64,000 bases of DNA. Source: Planctomycetota bacterium. Lineage in GTDB: Bacteria > Planctomycetota > GCA-002687715 > DRQF01. A program made the translations under genes and the position numbers. A model generated the notes under the pieces. That model did no database searches, was not told the DNA's origin, and worked only from the letters and a program-made list of their open reading frames with translations. The DNA lies in contig JAZGFI010000099.1 of assembly GCA_036479435.1 (NCBI GenBank), positions 28,569 to 92,568 of the forward strand, given 5' to 3'. How positions within the stretch are numbered: the first letter of the stretch is position 1; every line of letters starts with the position of its first letter. Shown here one piece after another: positions 10,263 through 28,549 of this stretch.

Positions 10263-10895
10263 TCAAGTTGACTCGTCAGCACGCAAGACCAGGAAATCCT
10301 GGATCTCGCGACTCAATGAGTCCTTCAAGTTGTTCTTCGCTCGGTTCAGCAGCGACTTCACCGCCATGACCGATAGCTCCATCGTCGCGCCGATATCGGC
10401 GTAGGACATCTGCTCAAACCGCGCCAGTAAAATGGCCATCCGCTGGTTGTCCGGCAAGGCGTCGATGGCCGACCGCACTTTGCTTTTCAACTCGACCATG
10501 TCCATGTCCGCTTCCGGCCGGGATCCGTCGTCTTCGATACGTTCGGAGAGCCTTGATCCCTTTCCCTCGGCGTCTGAGTCCCTTTCCTGGTCCAAGGAAA
10601 CCTGAAAATGGCGGGCCGCGCGCCGTTTTTCGTTGAGGCAAACGTTCGTGGCGATGGCCAGCAACCAAGTCTTGAAGCGAGCTCTTGGCTCATAGGTCTT
10701 CGCGGCGCGATGAACCTTCAAGAACACATCTTGGGCGAGATCCTCGACCGGCCCTGAGGGACCGACAAAGCGCTGCATGAAGCCCATCAACAACGAACCG
10801 TAGCCTGCTACGAGTTCCTCGAAGGCGCTTTCATCGCCCTCACGCACGCGGAGCATGCGTTTGACGTCGGGGTCTTCCAGGTACTCGTCGGCCAT
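10263..10895 (-). CDS. ECF RNA polymerase sigma-70 factor
   Basis: GDESAFEELV, EDLAQDVFLKV, FKTWLLAIATN; region 4 LPDNQRMAILL...SYADIG...AVKSLLNRA. Confidence 0.95.
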   Translation of the reverse strand: MADEYLEDPDVKRMLRVREGDESAFEELVAGYGSLLMGFMQRFVGPSGPVEDLAQDVFLKVHRAAKTYEPRARFKTWLLAIATNVCLNEKRRAARHFQVSLDQERDSDAEGKGSRLSERIEDDGSRPEADMDMVELKSKVRSAIDALPDNQRMAILLARFEQMSYADIGATMELSVMAVKSLLNRAKNNLKDSLSREIQDFLVLRADEST

Positions 10896-10907
10896 GGCCA
10901 ATTCCTG

Positions 10908-19528: not shown

Positions 19529-20773
19529 ATGGCTGCCAATCAACATGATGACTTGATTTACGACTGGAATCTCCGCGAACCCGCAGAGTCAATACCGCGC
19601 AAAGTGACTTTCGACGACGAAACCCTTCGCGACGGCCTCCAAAACCCCTCGGTTCGCAACCCGGACCTCGACGAGAAACGTGCGCTCGTCCGACTGATGG
19701 ATCGCCTCGGCATCCACACGGTAAACGTCGGCCTTCCCGGCGCCGGCGATCGCCACTACGTCGATTGCTTGGCCCTGGCCCAACAAATCGTTGACGAGAA
19801 GTTGAGCATTGTGCCGAACGTGGCCTGCCGCACTTTGCTCAACGACGTCGAGCCGGTGCGGCGGATGATGGACGAGACTGGAGCTCCGGTTTTGGCCAAC
19901 TGCTTCATCGGCTCGTCGCCTATCCGTCAGTACACCGAGGGTTGGACTCTCGACAAGATTCTCAGTTACATCGACACCACTCTTCGTTGGTGCGCGGACC
20001 ACGAGGTCCCCTTTGCGCTCGTTACCGAAGACACGACGCGCTCCAAACCCGAAGACGTCGAGCGGCTCTATCGACACGCCATCGAACTCGGCGCCGAGCG
20101 GCTTGTCGTCTGCGATACCTGCGGGCACGCGACCCCCGAGGGCACCTACTCTTTGATCAAGTTTGTCCGCGAGATCGCAGACAGCAGCGGCCGCGATGTC
20201 AAGGTTGACTGGCACGGTCACCGCGACCGGGGATTGGGCGAAGCCAACTGCATCGCCGCCGTTAGGGGCGGGGCCGACCAAATTCACGGCGCCGCTCTCG
20301 GCGTCGGCGAACGCGCGGGCAATGCCGCGATGGACCTGATCTTGGTGAACTTCAAGTTGCTGGGATGGATCGACAACGATCTCACCGCTTTGGCCGAGTA
20401 CTGCGATTTTGCCGCGAAGGCGCTCAACATCGAAATCCCAAACAACTACCCCGTCTTTGGCCACGATGCCTTTTTGACCGGCACCGGCGTTCACGCCGCC
20501 GCCGTCATCAAAGCCATGCGAAAAAACGACAACTGGCTTGCGGATCGAGTCTACTCAGGGGTTCCTGCCGCCGACTTCGGTCGAAAGCAAGAAATCGGAG
20601 TCGGCCCCATGTCGGGCAAATCAAACGTGCTCTTTTTCTTGGAGCAGCGCGGCTACGATCCGAACAACGAGGCCCTAGTTGAAGCCGTCTTCGACTGCGC
20701 CAAAAAGTCCGACCATCTGCTCAGCTCCAGCGAACTCGAAGCCGCCATCGCCTCTTTTGAAGGCAAAAACTGA
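19529..20773 (+). CDS. 2-isopropylmalate synthase family (DRE-TIM) enzyme without the C-terminal regulatory domain
   Basis: DETLRDGLQ, WHGHRDRG, GERAGN, GVHAAAV, GPMSGKSN; 414 aa. Confidence 0.88.
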   Translation: MAANQHDDLIYDWNLREPAESIPRKVTFDDETLRDGLQNPSVRNPDLDEKRALVRLMDRLGIHTVNVGLPGAGDRHYVDCLALAQQIVDEKLSIVPNVACRTLLNDVEPVRRMMDETGAPVLANCFIGSSPIRQYTEGWTLDKILSYIDTTLRWCADHEVPFALVTEDTTRSKPEDVERLYRHAIELGAERLVVCDTCGHATPEGTYSLIKFVREIADSSGRDVKVDWHGHRDRGLGEANCIAAVRGGADQIHGAALGVGERAGNAAMDLILVNFKLLGWIDNDLTALAEYCDFAAKALNIEIPNNYPVFGHDAFLTGTGVHAAAVIKAMRKNDNWLADRVYSGVPAADFGRKQEIGVGPMSGKSNVLFFLEQRGYDPNNEALVEAVFDCAKKSDHLLSSSELEAAIASFEGKN

Positions 20774-20886
20774 GCGGAGCTAACCCTAGATAACGAGAGT
20801 TCAGTGCAGCGAGCCGCCGCTTCATTGAGCAATTTGGCGTGTAGCAACATCGAAAGGGTGGAACCGGTCTCACCCGATCTCGAAGA

Positions 20887-21375
20887 CTAGCTGCGGCGCT
20901 TGTTCTTGTTTGAAGAACGTCGCGCGCCCGACTGAGTGACACTCGCCATGATCCGAGTTTTTTCAATTCTCTCAGTGCTCTTCGTTTTGTTCACACCTAG
21001 AAATGCAAGGGTAATGGCGATGAACCCCCCGCTGCTCAAAAGTCCGCCCTCAAGATTCTTACCCTCAGAGAGGAGGTAAGTCGAGCAGCCGAGAAGTGCG
21101 AGCACAAAAACCAAGCCTGAGACCAAGCCAACGCGGGTCTTGAAAGTCTCGTTTGCAACAGCCTGCTTTTCAATTTCTTGTCGGTGATCGGATTGTTTCT
21201 CCACCATTCGAAAAGCACGGTCTGCTCCATTTGGAACGACTTCACCGAGCTTCTCAAATTCAAACGATGGTGGAAACGGCGATGTGAACTCTAAGTCAAC
21301 GCGGCTTTCGTGATGAACAGTATGCGAAACCTTCTGTTGGTCAGATTTGCGATTTGTGGGGTTCTTGTCGGGCAT
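20887..21375 (-). CDS. DUF2335-like membrane protein
   Basis: SPFPPS..FEKLGEVVPNGADRAFRMVEKQSDHRQEIE followed by two TM helices. Confidence 0.8.
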   Translation of the reverse strand: MPDKNPTNRKSDQQKVSHTVHHESRVDLEFTSPFPPSFEFEKLGEVVPNGADRAFRMVEKQSDHRQEIEKQAVANETFKTRVGLVSGLVFVLALLGCSTYLLSEGKNLEGGLLSSGGFIAITLAFLGVNKTKSTERIEKTRIMASVTQSGARRSSNKNKRRS

Positions 21376-21397: not shown

Positions 21398-21643
21398 TTA
21401 TTCTGTCGTCGCTTCGCGTGTTTTCGCCGACTCAGGTCGCATCTCCATTGCGGCTTGTTTCAAGCCATCCAAAAAGTCGCGACCGACCATCTCGCAATCC
21501 ATTCTTAAAGCAACAAAGTCAGCTTGACTTCCACTCGGTGAGGTGACGTACTCTTCCGCAGAACCTGTTATGTCGATAACGCTGCTGAATCCGTCCCAAA
21601 ACCCCGAGTGCGCCGTCAGAAAAAAACTCTCGGGTTCATTCAT
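21398..21643 (-). CDS. Small hypothetical protein upstream of the DUF2335 gene
   Basis: 81 aa; AAGGAG Shine-Dalgarno; FWDGFSSVIDITG...ADFVALRMDCEMVGRDF. Confidence 0.7.
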   Translation of the reverse strand: MNEPESFFLTAHSGFWDGFSSVIDITGSAEEYVTSPSGSQADFVALRMDCEMVGRDFLDGLKQAAMEMRPESAKTREATTE

Positions 21644-21944
21644 GATTTGACTCCTTTGGTCAACATAGACCTAAGAATATGTACGGTTGCCGCAGGAGTC
21701 AACCTTGAGAGAATTGTCGACATTTCTAAACCTTTTCAAAACAAAGCTTTAGACACGAGCGATCGGCCCCGGACGGACGTCTTTGTGCTTGCACCTGAAC
21801 AAGAAGTCACCGAAATGGTCTAAACAGCCAAGACCGGAACTCTCTCACCGTAGTGAAAGACGAGCGGCTTGCTGCTTAGGTACGTTAAAACCAACTCAAA
21901 ACTCTTGGCTGAGCTAAAGATCTCTGACAATCCGATCCCAGCCG

Positions 21945-22007
21945 AGATAGCGGGTTTGGCGATCAGCGGTCGTGCGCAGCGCGATCCGCTGCATTGCCGT
22001 GTTAGGC
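21945..22007 (-). other. attC site (59-base element) of an integron gene cassette
   Basis: Minus strand GCCTAAC (R'') ACGGC A ATGCAGCGG...CCGCTGAT (L''/L' with one extra base) CGCCAAACCC G|CTATCT; R'' overlaps the FRG stop TAA. Confidence 0.8.
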
Positions 22008-22879
22008 ACCAACCTGCTGAATCGCACCAACTGCAGCTGCCCCCGCGGGTGCCCTAAGAAGTAGTTCGCCATAGCCATAGTCGTAGGTAGCCGGAGGGAA
22101 GAGTGAATGGACGCTTGTCAGCCCGCCGGAGCCGAGCCAAAGAAGCGCGTCGAACAGCGACACTCGGATAACACCGACGATCAAGTCTGAGTAGTCCATG
22201 CGTGTGTGGTCGTTGTGCCTCGCGCGTCGCACCAAGAGGCCGTGTTGCGCATGTGGCCGCACGAAATGTGATGGCGCCGCTACCCGAAGATCGACGAGTT
22301 CGGTATCGCCACCACTCCAGAAACCGGGCCGTTCGCGTTTTTGCGTCGAAGCTGGAACGTTGAGCATGACGACATAGACGAACTCCTTGTTTGACCGCAC
22401 AGCGCGCTGCTCAAAGTGGAGAAACTGAGCTGTTGGGCCTGAGCAGCGAGCCTTGTAGCAACCGAACCACAATGCCACCCAGATGTTGTCGACTAGGTCG
22501 AGCCATCGTGTGCGCACACCGTAGTGCTGAAGCAGTGGCTCGCGAACGTCCGGCCCGACCGCCCTGAGGACGGCTTTGTCATCGGCGATTCTCGCGAGGT
22601 AATCGCCGATGGCCTTGTCGGCGGTTTCTTTCGAGCTCTGAGTGGTGAGTTCACGGTATAGCGTTGGCGTTAGAGAATCGAACAGCTCTACCTGACCGCG
22701 GAATGCAACTACGCACTGAGCGGTCTTGGCGAGGGTATGTTTGAGATACCCGGCTGCCTGCATTAGTAGGTGCGAGTTCGTTACATGATAAACGTAGCTT
22801 CCGGATGCCTCGTCGAGGACGAAGTCGCCGTAGGGCGAGTTGAGTCTCGATAGAAGAGAGTCCATCCTTGCGTGCCCAA
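21951..22879 (-). mobile_element. Solitary integron gene cassette carrying the FRG gene
   Basis: Begins G|TTGGGC (GTTRRRY) at 22880-22874 with the ATG 15 nt after the G, and ends in attC; no integrase in the window. Confidence 0.75.
22002..22865 (-). CDS. FRG domain protein
   Basis: AFRGQ, LTPTLYR, LLQHYGVRTRWLDLVDNIWVALWF, RPHAQHGL. Confidence 0.9.
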   Translation of the reverse strand: MDSLLSRLNSPYGDFVLDEASGSYVYHVTNSHLLMQAAGYLKHTLAKTAQCVVAFRGQVELFDSLTPTLYRELTTQSSKETADKAIGDYLARIADDKAVLRAVGPDVREPLLQHYGVRTRWLDLVDNIWVALWFGCYKARCSGPTAQFLHFEQRAVRSNKEFVYVVMLNVPASTQKRERPGFWSGGDTELVDLRVAAPSHFVRPHAQHGLLVRRARHNDHTRMDYSDLIVGVIRVSLFDALLWLGSGGLTSVHSLFPPATYDYGYGELLLRAPAGAAAVGAIQQVGA

Positions 22880-24925
22880 CTACTGCTTGACTAGCTCTGG
22901 GTTGCGGAAGCGAGCTTTTTCGCTGAGGGGGTCCGGCGACTCCAAAAGCCCGCGGTCGATCATCAGGTCGATGCGCTCCCGGATGTCGGTGGGAGCGTCG
23001 GGCTCTGCCATGAGGCCCGCGACCAACTTGCCCTCGCTTCCGACGCGCTCTAAGACTGCAACGTCAATTTCGTCTAACAAGTAGTCGCGTTGGCTTTCAG
23101 CGACGTATCCGAAACGCTGCATTTGACCTTGGCTATCTTCGTAGACCAAGATGTTGTTTTCGCGTCCAAGACGCACGACGCGATCTGGCACGGGCGGTTC
23201 GTCCGTTGAGGTCGGACCGACCTGGGCCACAGCTCGCAGTTGGTAGAGCCGCTCGGGATAGCGAGCGCCGTAGAGCAGGCTCGCCCCGCAAGTGGTTAGT
23301 TCGATGTCGGACCGAACGTGATAGGCCGTATGCTGGCGGTCGGTGTCCCAATCAGAACCATCTAGTTGTTTCACCGTGGAAAAACCATGCTCGCCGGTCA
23401 CGACTTCGACACCGAAGTCCTCTGGCCGGTGAAACACGGGGACGTCGTGATCGAGGCAAAAGGTCCCGGTGTAGAGCGACAAGTGCATCGACTCTGGATG
23501 GCGGCGCCAAAAACGCCAGGACTCGCGGGCATCGTCTTCGCGCTCAGTCGGAAACCCGATAAACCAAGTTCCGCACATCGTGATGCCGAAGTCGCGCAGA
23601 TGTTCGAGGATGATCTCGATCTTTTGGAGATCATTCCCCTTCTTCATGCTGTCGAGTACCCGCTGTACGCCGGACTCGAACCCGAACTGCAACTGAGCGC
23701 ATCCACCTTTTGAGAGTTTTTCGACGTAGATGCGGTTGGTGTAGATCTTTTCGAACTTGACCTCGGCGTACCAATGAAAGTCAAGATTGTCGCGGGCCAC
23801 CTGTTTCGCGACGTACTCAAGCGTTACCGGCGGCGTCAGCGGGTCGAAGAAATGCAAGAATTTGACGCCCTGCTCTTCCACGAGCTGCTCGACGTCGTCG
23901 TACACGCGCTGGGGTGACCGCTTGCGAAAACCAACCCGGAAACTCTCGGGGCAGAAAGTACACTTGCCGTAGTAGCAGCCCCGCGAAGTCGTGTAGATGC
24001 CGGCTTTTTCGGGAAGCAGGTAGTGCGAAAAATCCACCTCGGCGTAGTCCGGAGTCGGGCTCTCGTCGAGGTTGACGTTCTTGAACTTTACCGGGCGAAG
24101 CACCTCACCGGATTCGTCGCGACGCCAAAGCGCATCGACCTCATCAAAACTCTTTTTGCCTTCGACGGCGGTGACGATGTCAACGACCGCCTCTTCACCG
24201 TCGCCAACGATGGCGTAGTCGATGTAGTCGTAAAATCGCGGGTCGGTGAGAACTTTCTCGGCGCAATCCGAAATGCCCGTGCCGCCGATGACGAACTTCA
24301 GAGTTGGCATTTCACGGCGCAGCATCCTAGCCATGAACATTGCCGGCGCCACTTGAATGGAGAAGGGGCAAGACATCGCGATGACGTCCGGCTCGAGCTT
24401 GTGCATCGCCGGAATGAAGTTCTTGGCGTAGTAATCGTAGTAGGGGTCGACGGCTTCGCTTTCTAGCCAAGGAAATAGATCCGCCATGTAGTCTTTGTGG
24501 CGCGGATCGAGGCGAGGCGTCAGGGCATTCAAGAACTTGTGCGTCGTCTTAACGACGCGGTCCATGTGGCGGTATTGCTTGGGATCGTAGAAACGTTCCG
24601 GGTCTCTTAGGCCGCTGCAGGCGCTCGTGGTTTCGTCCAACAGATCGCGGCGGTAAAGGCGCAATCTGCGGTAGGAATCGAGGCGCAGTTTCTCCGCGTT
24701 CGTGGGATCGGACTTGCCTTCGAGCTCGGCGATCATCGCGTCATAGGTTGCGAGATAGCGCTGAAGGTTTTTTTCCTCGGTGAGATAGCTGAACGAAGCC
24801 GCATTGAGATCGTGAATAGAGGTTTTATAGCCGCCTCTTTTCAAGCAGGCGTTGAAGAGCGGCAGGGCTCCGAAAACCATCGTGGGACGAGTAAAGTCCG
24901 GTGGGTAGACCAAGGCAACACGCAC
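22880..24925 (-). CDS. Cobalamin-binding (class B) radical SAM protein
   Basis: N-terminal LVYPP...DLN B12-binding domain; VGDGEEA; SRGCYYGKCTFC; FGFESG; FIGFPTE; GTG start. Confidence 0.9.
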   Translation of the reverse strand: MRVALVYPPDFTRPTMVFGALPLFNACLKRGGYKTSIHDLNAASFSYLTEEKNLQRYLATYDAMIAELEGKSDPTNAEKLRLDSYRRLRLYRRDLLDETTSACSGLRDPERFYDPKQYRHMDRVVKTTHKFLNALTPRLDPRHKDYMADLFPWLESEAVDPYYDYYAKNFIPAMHKLEPDVIAMSCPFSIQVAPAMFMARMLRREMPTLKFVIGGTGISDCAEKVLTDPRFYDYIDYAIVGDGEEAVVDIVTAVEGKKSFDEVDALWRRDESGEVLRPVKFKNVNLDESPTPDYAEVDFSHYLLPEKAGIYTTSRGCYYGKCTFCPESFRVGFRKRSPQRVYDDVEQLVEEQGVKFLHFFDPLTPPVTLEYVAKQVARDNLDFHWYAEVKFEKIYTNRIYVEKLSKGGCAQLQFGFESGVQRVLDSMKKGNDLQKIEIILEHLRDFGITMCGTWFIGFPTEREDDARESWRFWRRHPESMHLSLYTGTFCLDHDVPVFHRPEDFGVEVVTGEHGFSTVKQLDGSDWDTDRQHTAYHVRSDIELTTCGASLLYGARYPERLYQLRAVAQVGPTSTDEPPVPDRVVRLGRENNILVYEDSQGQMQRFGYVAESQRDYLLDEIDVAVLERVGSEGKLVAGLMAEPDAPTDIRERIDLMIDRGLLESPDPLSEKARFRNPELVKQ

Positions 24926-25208: not shown

Positions 25209-25907
25209 TCATTCGAAATGCAGGCTGTCGATCGCAAACTTTAGCGAACGCCAGATTTCGATTTTTCCGGGCTCCTGGGGACTGATTTGGACCCGAAGGA
25301 TGGTCGCCGTGGCTCCCGAAAGTTCAGTATCGACGACAACATGAAGCCTTAACTCGTCTCCAGATCCAAAGGCATCGTAGGTTTTCACCAACCCTGAGTA
25401 ATGCGCGCCGTCATTGCGGCGGATGAGCACGTCGGCCGGATCGGCCGGGAGATCAAAAGCTTTGCCTTGGCCCACCGCGCCGATAAGTCCGTCAAAGTAC
25501 AGTTCGAAGATTTCCTTGAGTCGTTTGGAATCTAGGTCGGACTCCTCGATCTCCATCAAAAAGACATAGGACCAGAAATCTTCCGCGTCTGGCTTACGCC
25601 ACCCGGGTGCGAAGAGCAGAGTTTCGCGGCCCTTAGGCATTTTCGGCGCGAAGCCAGGTGGTAACTTGATCACTTCGGGAGTCCATGTCGAAAGATCTAC
25701 CCTAAATTTCTCCTCGGCTGGCGCCGCGACCTCCGTCTTAGAGTCGCAACTGAAGAGAACAGCCAAAACCGACAAATAAACCGCGAAGAACATGGCCGTT
25801 CGCCCTGGCTGACGTGGAGCTTTCTTCCTTGAATCGGATTGCGTTTGAACTCGAGAGTTTGGCGCAGTGGAGCCTGGGCCCGCCAAGTTCGGTGACTGAA
25901 ATGTCAT
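25209..25907 (-). CDS. Hypothetical lipoprotein
   Basis: Lipobox-like VLFSC; TAATG coupling with the upstream stop; alternative start at 25793. Confidence 0.65.
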   Translation of the reverse strand: MTFQSPNLAGPGSTAPNSRVQTQSDSRKKAPRQPGRTAMFFAVYLSVLAVLFSCDSKTEVAAPAEEKFRVDLSTWTPEVIKLPPGFAPKMPKGRETLLFAPGWRKPDAEDFWSYVFLMEIEESDLDSKRLKEIFELYFDGLIGAVGQGKAFDLPADPADVLIRRNDGAHYSGLVKTYDAFGSGDELRLHVVVDTELSGATATILRVQISPQEPGKIEIWRSLKFAIDSLHFE

Positions 25908-28549
25908 TAGTTTGTCTCGACCATGCGAACAGAAGTCCAGTCATCTATAGATTGCCGGCTTTTGGGGCGCGTCTGCAAGACCGATCTACCGACCGGTATC
26001 CGTGCCCTTAGAAACCTCTTTTTATCCACCGGAACGGTGGTTAGTTCGCGGTTAGATTTTTCGTCCAAGCCACGAACAAAGCGAGCTTGTATCGATTCAT
26101 CCTCAAGGTGTTCCTGCACGGAGGCGGTAGACATCGTCTTTTGCCAGTAGAGTTGCGGGCCCTTCAATAGAATCTCTCGCCACACTTCGCACCTTGCGCC
26201 TCCGGGCAGAGGGCCAACAAATCGCAGGCGGGCGCGGCCGGGACGAGCGGTCAAGACGAACTGCCCTTGCCGATCGACTTTCTTGGCTGGTCTTGCCGTG
26301 GCACCCCGGTCGTGCGGCGGGCGCACAACCTTGACGGTCCAACCTGGCAGTGGTGGAGCACCGTCGATCATCCATTGTCCCTTGACCTTGACATCAACCA
26401 GATCTCGCATGTCGATATCGAGTTTGAGTGTTTTGCGGTCAACGACGAAGGCGTTCCATCGAGGATCCATATCTTCGGGGTGCCTGGAGATCGACAACAA
26501 CTCCTTTCGTCATCTCGATCTTGACATCGTAGACTTGCTCATCGGCTTGCACCTGAAAGGTGATTTCAGCGCTTGCGAGACCCTCGAATCTCGCGACGAC
26601 GCCGACGGTGGTCCAGCTCTTTTTTATTGGCGATTCGAATCGCCCGTCCGAATCTGTTTTAACGGTGGTCACCCCGCTTGGATAGCGATTAGCGAACCCT
26701 CCCGTCATGGCTACAAAACTAGTGTGTCGGCGCATAACCGCCACCGTCGCTCCTTCGACCGGCTTGCCGTAGGCAAGGACACGTCCCTGAACCTCGGCGC
26801 CACGCGGCAGCCTGATGGTGAGGGACTCGGGCGCTGAGTCGTAATCGAAGGGCCCCAGAGTCTTGGAGCCGAATCCCGTTCTTCTCACCGTCACTGAGAA
26901 TCTCTGGCTCGGAATCGCAAGCTCTATTTCTCCGTCCTGATCCGTATAGGACCATTTTTCTCCGGGAGTGAGTCGCGTTGCGTCCTTGGGTGACGAATTC
27001 GCGCCGTTCAAGACAGGCATGATAAGGGTGTCGGAAACTGGCTCGCCAACTAGATCGGTGACGGTGACGGTGACAGAAATCAGCTGCCGCTGCGGCAAGC
27101 GCAGGTTGACGGTTTCACCGCGCTTTGCGACCCGAGTGGGGCTCATCCCAAAGGCTCCCTTGGAATAGCGAGCAATGAATTCCATGGGCTCATCATCTTT
27201 TGCAAGCACGACGAAGCGACTGTCCTTGTCAGTTTGAACTTGTCCGTGAGGGGGCATGCTTTCCCTAAGATAGTCCACTCGTGCATTCGCAGCCGGGACT
27301 CCATCGGGTTGCAGCACGACGCCTTCAACCCGCCGTGAGCGCGATTCCTTGGTGAGGATGACATTCCCAATATCGATACGGCTACGAGGCGTCATCGTGA
27401 AGGGCGCGGTCAGTGTCCAAGGGTGACCGCGGGTGTGACCCCAGATACGAGCGCTCGCGTCTCCCAGGACATCGACCGTAATTCCTGAAAGCTCGAAGCT
27501 TCCATCGGCGGCACTCGTCGTTCGAGGTATGGCCCCTTGGAAATTTGGACCGCTGAAACTTAGGGCATCTAAGTCCTCCGCAACAACGCTATCGCTCGCG
27601 TAGAGAACAGCTCCGGCGGCGAACAACATGTCGAAGAGTTGATCTCGGGATTTTCTCAATGACTTGTCGGCTAGCTCAAGAACGACACGACCGGCCTCGT
27701 CGCTCCGCGCGACGTTGTTGAGGCCTCTTGCACTCCCATCAGAGTGGATGGAACTTAGAGTGGCATTCGCAAGCGGCTTCATATCATCGCCAAGGATGCG
27801 GGCGCGCAACACCGTGACGTTTGAGTTAGCGCTCGCGAAAGGACTTGGAATTTCTAGTCCCGCGGCGTTAGCGAGCAGAAGGTTATCCGCCGAGCGACGG
27901 TTTGTATTTTCTTGGCCTAAGAGGGTGTTCGCGCCTCTCCGTGCTTTCGCGGCCGCGAAATCGCTGCGCGAAGCGACAGTATTCTCAGGGCCCGTGACCT
28001 TGTCATTGGCATGCTCGGCGTTGAGATAGATGGTGGCGCCTGCGGCGAAAATGATGAGTGCGGCAACGGCGGCAGCAGTGACTTTGGTAGACATTTTCAT
28101 GAGCGCGACCTCCGCGATTCGACTTGATGTGAAATGGGTGCTGGTTCCGGCCGCGGCTACAAAGGCGCTGAGAGCGCGGGGAGGGCGTCGACTCGCTTGG
28201 CGATGTCGCGATGCAGCTCGAACCTCATCAAGACTTCATCACTGGAACTTGAACTCAAGCCGGCAGTCGATCTCGAACTCGAACTCACCTGCGCCTCGCG
28301 GGCTTGTCGCCTCACATCGCTCCGAACCCGGTGGCGCGCAAGCCTGCTTGCGACTTTCGCCAGCCAGGGGCGCAAGCTGCCTTTAGTGTCGGGTTGCCTT
28401 TCCAGCGCGAGGGCAAGGGTGCTCTGGGCGATGTCTTCGGCGGCTGCCCAGTCCCGCGTCAAGCGCTTGGCAAGTTGAAGGACCCACCCTGATTCCGCAA
28501 GAAGTGCATCAAGTTGCGGGTTGTGCGGAGATTTTTTCTGAGTGCTCAT
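25907..28549 (-). pseudogene. Fragmented ECF sigma factor fused to a TM helix and carboxypeptidase-regulatory-like beta-sandwich repeats
   Basis: 28157-28549 encodes sigma region 2 (AEDIAQ, LRPWLAKVA) and ends at VDALPA with no region 4; 26439-28100 encodes TM plus GxVxxxxGxP...TDxDGRF repeats; 25907-26500 is the tail; frames change at both junctions. Confidence 0.75.

Follow-up and report, generated by a model that had tools for sequence, protein, structure and literature searches.

A putative integron cassette carrying an FRG-domain gene at the stop codon of a radical-SAM gene in a planctomycete

Insertion of integron cassettes into genomes by recombination between attC and a genomic attG site has been described, with a GWT consensus at the target for IntI1-3 (bioRxiv 2022.09.11.507474). 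The same work counted 3400 SALINs in 2469 genomes and reported expression of inserted cassettes close to host promoters and their excision at the insertion point or beside it (bioRxiv 2022.09.11.507474). Regarding the crossover bases, a study on IntI1 gives wild-type recombination for attI1-GCT and a level about 2–6 times lower for attC-GCT, the complementary base having also been changed in these mutants (Frumerie et al., PMC2811028). Translational coupling at attI1 through ORF-11 is treated in a review (PMC8876359).

The locus described here lies in a window of 64,000 nucleotides (the whole stretch of DNA that was analysed) on a 92.6-kb contig of a Planctomycetota bacterium. Judged from its sequence, a 930-bp unit (22879–21951, minus strand) made of an FRG gene and an attC is an integron gene cassette that stands outside any integron. 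The contigs of two sequencing runs, one of which may be the source of this DNA, cover the whole stretch without change.

Anatomy of the cassette and its attC site

The host gene encodes a B12-binding radical-SAM protein of 681 aa (22880..24925, minus strand; Pfam PF02310 and PF04055) and is intact. Its stop codon is TAG, the final G of which (22880) is the left crossover base and also the first letter of a GTTRRRY core site, G/TTGGGC (22874..22880, minus strand; the slash marks the crossover), as the first-pass annotation had read it; the left boundary of the unit thus falls exactly on the crossover G. The assignment of this junction draws on the sequence, on the mismatch count with R'' and on the rarity of such sites at ORF ends, since a TAG whose G opens GTTRRRY was found for only 3 of the 4120 long mechanically called ORFs of the genome. 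The other two such gene ends are located on contigs C1 and C295, and neither contig shows an attC match. The ATG of the FRG gene follows at 22865, after a gap of 14 nt, and its stop (22004–22002) lies inside GCCTAAC (22007–22001), which is the R'' of a 63-nt attC (attC1; 21945..22007, minus strand). The arms of attC1 are L'' AATGCAGC and L' GCTGATC with one extra G, and a 9-nt spacer leads to the terminus G21951/CTATCT, so that every sequence feature claimed at first sight for this end is borne out as well. The site therefore has the R''-L''-L'-R' layout of attC sites with an extra-helical base and a bottom-strand hairpin, and a single promoterless ORF fills the unit with its stop in or near R'', as in gene cassettes. 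The R''/R' pairing of GCCTAAC with GTTGGGC, which had been called near-complementary, includes one mismatch and is within the normal range: among the 41 cassettes with a neighbouring attC in the metagenome loci listed, 37 have no core/R'' mismatch and two have one. The bottom-strand hairpin of attC1 contains one bulged base (-15.4 kcal/mol) and is modest by itself (z -1.7 over its 64 nt and -2.8 once flanks are included). A further hairpin after attC1 is not significant (z -1.1), and a weak attC-like pattern around 21890 was rejected because it has no R'.

Two covariance models were built with attC1 left out, R1 from 12 attCs (six of this genome and six of FRG-relative loci) and R3 from six native attCs with a hand-set structure. 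Both ranked 21945–22007 first in the window (cmsearch E 1.9e-4 for R1 and 4.3e-6 for R3), and R1 gave E 0.016 over the whole genome, so the independent model scan that the first-pass annotation had proposed came out in favor of the site. A motif scan of metagenome contigs yielded at least 125 loci, from which 117 distinct attCs of the same family were extracted; two of the metagenome sites (L165 and L184) are 93–95% identical to attC1. Among the matches listed, 112 of the 117 have a GTT 6–9 nt after L', and one site (L187) has the identical 9-nt spacer followed by GTTGGGC, which indicates that G21951 is the crossover base and that the CT behind it is a real departure. The remaining five in the same set have no GTT and one of them (L158) reads G/CT like attC1, which implies that plain core decay happens. 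Since attC1 falls outside the family of the native arrays, the cassette came from a wider pool.

The FRG gene, its product and its expression

The FRG-domain gene (22002..22865, minus strand) is promoterless, has a weak ribosome-binding site and encodes 287 aa with a match to PF08867 (E 6e-9; 37 bits against a Pfam cut-off of 25). A total of 697 relatives were found, the best being 58% identical, and the protein possesses the 33 invariant positions of a 119-sequence family alignment. The PADLOC candidate PDC-S15 also matches it (E 1.5e-10) over about 100 aa. The structure model has a pLDDT of 94.9, and the six best VIA-align rows against known folds are all ADP-ribosyltransferases (ART), each of them weak individually (Z 5.0–6.5, rmsd 3.0–5.6, 109–133 aligned residues). 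Foldseek with this model gave no match at E<=0.001 (E above 0.1), and no solved structure was matched by the FRG profile in the sequence search. The likeness to the FRG domain, the ART superfamily and PDC-S15 consists of a Pfam match above cut-off, the invariant residues, a possible ART-like fold and a partial match to PDC-S15, which extends over about a third of the protein. One paper assigns Frg to the ART superfamily and regards it as a potential anti-viral NADase, which is itself a prediction (PMC9503650); an experimental function was not found in the openly accessible literature, where only a prediction turned up. At about even odds, the protein would most likely bind NAD+ through an ART-type fold and act as an NADase or an ADP-ribosylating anti-phage effector, and its role in defence is putative.

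At 23 loci of FRG relatives, an attC was found directly after the stop in five (L043, L046, L049, L054 and L056; read by eye) and anywhere in the locus in eight, five of which trained R1. The other 15 loci examined have no attC, which indicates that the FRG gene also lives outside cassettes. A relative on a Klebsiella plasmid has umuCD and plasmid partition genes as its neighbors, and no integron is annotated there. Loci of the host-gene orthologues showed no attC match in any of 13 cases.

The start of the FRG gene has a weak Shine-Dalgarno match (-4.1 kcal/mol, against -6.9 for the 81-aa gene downstream), and scans for sigma70 promoters and terminators remained at chance level. Transcription would probably be provided by read-through from the radical-SAM gene. 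For translation, it is plausible by analogy with ORF-11 of class 1 integrons that ribosomes re-initiate 14 nt past the radical-SAM stop. Both arrangements share an upstream frame that stops at the crossover, a few nucleotides ahead of a cassette gene whose ribosome-binding site is poor; here, however, that frame is a complete host enzyme gene with its own stop, and the coupling is putative.

Surroundings of the cassette and integrase genes of the genome

Eight radical-SAM orthologues with 47–67% identity were found in genomes of the family and order, and their fetched flanks contain no FRG gene (for two of the orthologues the contig breaks off within 300 nt). The FRG gene was also not found in any of eight family genomes (81–92% complete). 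In one relative (G003) the gene order is TPR, glycosyltransferase, HMGL-like, a gap, radical-SAM, a 276-aa gene and an M20 peptidase, and the gap between the HMGL-like and radical-SAM genes is filled by unrelated genes. Since the flanks are kept and the gap genes differ, the content of this gap is lineage-specific, and the stable synteny of FRG with the radical-SAM gene that would have spoken against an insertion is not seen. The HMGL-like gene (19529..20773, plus strand; PF00682) is the convergent host gene that forms the right boundary of the foreign segment; its orthologues are 59–73% identical in five of five relatives. Convergent gaps of 13–16 nt follow it in relatives (in G003 the partner is a mechanically called 118-aa ORF).

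On the other side of the radical-SAM gene, window positions 25209–28549 hold a block of genes and apparent gene fragments, including a 130-aa ORF that may be a truncated ECF sigma factor. This block parts the radical-SAM gene from the 276-aa gene, which are adjacent in G003, and it therefore appears to be a second insertion, upstream of the radical-SAM gene.

The empty site predicted by the first-pass annotation, CAGTAG/CTATCT (22880 joined to 21950), was seen nowhere among the relatives, in the metagenome or in the runs searched. The search for relatives returned no genome of the same genus, and a metagenome scan with the radical-SAM C-terminus gave no relative. Four of the 10 listed runs (seven holders, three studies) were examined and none contained the joint, with contigs that drop rare variants; in run X7 (share 0.54) the contigs were short and patchy, and none joined the two sides of the cassette.

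The DNA between attC1 and the stop of the HMGL-like gene consists of 300 nt without an ORF, an 81-aa gene and a DUF2335 gene, and its GC content is 47–50% compared to 58% for the genome. The foreign segment has no match elsewhere in the genome. The foreign-looking 81-aa gene (21398..21643, minus strand; 50% GC, no Pfam match) has a GC3 of 0.53 compared to 0.64–0.74 in host genes, and a sigma70-like promoter match upstream of it (21674..21702, minus strand) is insignificant alone, being one match against 1.4 expected by chance. The DUF2335 gene (20887..21375, minus strand; PF10097), also foreign-looking, encodes a 162-aa membrane protein whose family occurs in eight of 301 genomes of the phylum and in none of five family relatives. 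Weak relatives are present in seven phage records, and a search of a protein collection and of viral contigs gave no close relative. Relatives of the 81-aa gene precede DUF2335 at two loci (L215 and L212), and elsewhere in the phylum, too, the two genes occur together, possibly with their own promoter.

Directly after the DUF2335 stop, about 1.1 kb from attC1, there is a degenerate attC-like stretch of the native attC family (attC2; 20788..20838, minus strand) that ends in G20794/TTATCT. Its signal is weak by covariance models (E 2.7 and 3.9) and by nhmmer (E 4 over the genome). With one parameter set, its alignment score was reached by eight of 20,000 random 113-nt genome windows, five of which overlap true attCs, and the remnant is probably real. 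The first 7 nt after G21951 mismatch the attC2 R'' at 5–6 of seven positions, a level (more than two mismatches) seen in one of the 41 cassettes mentioned above, and DUF2335 relatives in seven other genomes have an attC at none of their loci. Because of this mismatch and of these attC-free relatives, the segment after G21951 is not regarded as one intact cassette. The bases after the two crossover G's match at seven of nine positions (21950–21942 and 20793–20785), which could reflect a target preference, an old duplication or chance. The FRG cassette had been described as solitary; this agrees with the lack of a second significant covariance-model match, but the decayed attC-like remnant at 20838–20788, after the DUF2335 pair, makes it doubtful.

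A search with TIGR02249 gave one intI over the cut-off in the genome, on contig C63 (435 bits, 332 aa, intact), in which what we take to be the catalytic motifs can be read; nothing intI-like was found on the contig of the window. The array of the C63 integron (L064, 1–4979) lies 3' of intI on the same strand, an inverted-integrase layout, and comprises five near-identical attCs and three diverged copies (89–94%) of one cassette of about 525 bp, one copy being partial at the contig end. Contigs C84 (24000–41955), C82 (L066), C164 (L067), C19 (L068) and C111 (L069) bear decayed clusters of small genes that lack an integrase and whose attCs are truncated or decayed, so that the search for intI and attC sites elsewhere in the genome, suggested at the outset, turned up both. 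Additionally, C2 carries at 10756–10902 (L071) a 79% copy of the attI-side region of C63 with no intI gene, and on C252 (1–150, L070) a further copy of the 525-bp cassette is preceded by a different attI-like stretch; both stretches may be satellite attI sites. The start of C252 overlaps the end of C84. The IntI of C63 is one candidate for the integrase that placed the FRG cassette, and it would act in trans.

Competing histories and comparison with known systems

We favor, with a probability of about 0.6, a single insertion of the FRG cassette at a G/CT site by an integrase. The excised circle would recombine through its folded bottom-strand attC with a double-stranded attG-type genomic site in which the final letter of the radical-SAM stop codon provides the crossover G, and the DUF2335 segment with attC2 would be an earlier and separate acquisition in the same gap. 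This reading is supported by the location of both unit ends on integrase crossover G's, by the absence of intI from the contig and by its presence elsewhere in the genome. The GCT junction at 21951 departs from the GWT target consensus, which was determined for IntI1-3 only; a G/CT target is nevertheless possible, since attI1-GCT is as good as wild type. The right-hand attG motif CRGM, at positions 6–9 in the preprint, is found at 7–10 after G21951, off by one, and was not counted. Against a single insertion, the cassette would have landed exactly between the host stop and an older foreign segment, the 7/9 base match of the two right junctions is left unexplained, and each fold match is weak by itself (best Z 6.5). 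The proposal of an integrase acting in trans agrees with the intact IntI on C63, its absence from the contig of the window and the position of the cassette outside an integron, although the proposed empty site was not seen. The cassette was also thought hard to excise: excision would be rare for an inserted cassette without an upstream attC, and this absence is what would mainly hold it, but the GCT junction, being tolerated by IntI1, need not lock it.

A possible but more doubtful history is a decayed two-cassette cluster (a small CALIN), for which the host site would be TAG/TTAT, with G22880 joined to 20793 and a convergent gap of 20 nt. The cassettes would have arrived in a single block or by two insertions at one and the same G, and the G/CT after attC1 would be a mutated core or the scar of a later integrase-driven deletion within the cluster. 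Several features agree with it: the attC-like remnant is on the correct strand and immediately follows the DUF2335 stop, the 20794 junction (G20794/TTAT) fits GWT whereas G21951/CT does not, the intervening DNA is low in GC and absent from relatives, the relatives have convergent gaps of similar kind (13–16 nt) after the HMGL-like gene, and decayed cassette clusters are found at several places in the genome. CALINs of two cassettes are also on record, as is excision at non-att sites close by (bioRxiv 2022.09.11.507474). On the other hand, attC2 is weak (E 2.7–3.9), its R'' is not complementary to the bases that follow G21951, an attC is missing from all DUF2335 pairs elsewhere (0/7), and attC1 is otherwise well kept. 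It is unlikely, in turn, that the last base of the host stop is a re-used attI-like loading site, the two cassettes having entered at the same G one after the other. If so, the radical-SAM gene would supply transcription and translational coupling to the first cassette, as a natural satellite integron platform or proto-attI that a distant integrase serves in trans and from which an ART-fold defence gene would be expressed today. A site loaded twice would be informative about the origin of attI sites from attG hotspots.

Very improbable is a remnant of an integron or array that had formerly been complete and that rearrangement or IS activity, instead of an integrase acting at this site, either brought here or deprived of its integrase. 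Array fragments without intI do occur in this genome, some beside transposase-like ORFs (C84 and C164), and IS-driven CALIN formation has been described (PMC4889954), but the left boundary lies exactly on the crossover G with an intact host stop, no intI trace exists on the contig and the segment is unique in the genome. Finally, a chance hairpin behind an FRG gene that was gained by ordinary horizontal transfer, without any integron, would suit the modest fold z-score and the 15 of 23 FRG relatives without attC, but is refuted by the covariance-model match (E 4e-6), the 93–95% identity to bona fide attCs, the matching 5' core and the crossover of the 117-member family.

Under the favored single insertion as well as in a small cluster, the FRG cassette is a real integron cassette outside an integron and a new instance of SALIN or small-CALIN formation. 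It resembles SALINs in that its CDS is accompanied by a single recognisable attC, that an integrase is absent from the surroundings, that the crossover follows a G and that a host promoter may drive expression. It differs from them in its junction, which is G/CT instead of GWT and falls on the final letter of a host stop codon, and in the second, decayed attC remnant 1.1 kb away, which may make it a small CALIN. With CALINs it shares a pair of attC-like sites that are on the same strand and no more than 4 kb apart, and an intI elsewhere in the genome, but the second site is below model significance and the segment between the two is not an intact cassette. The aadB cassette, known from secondary sites in RSF1010 and pRAY, is likewise a complete single cassette downstream of host transcription signals (summarized in bioRxiv 2022.09.11.507474), whereas the present one is chromosomal, belongs to an uncultured bacterium and carries a putative defence gene. 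The locus thus offers a natural example of a process that has been demonstrated experimentally and tallied across thousands of genomes (SALIN, attG), to which it adds a non-GWT junction, a stop-codon landing that could give expression without cost to the host gene, and an intact FRG cassette as a candidate for a phage-defence assay.
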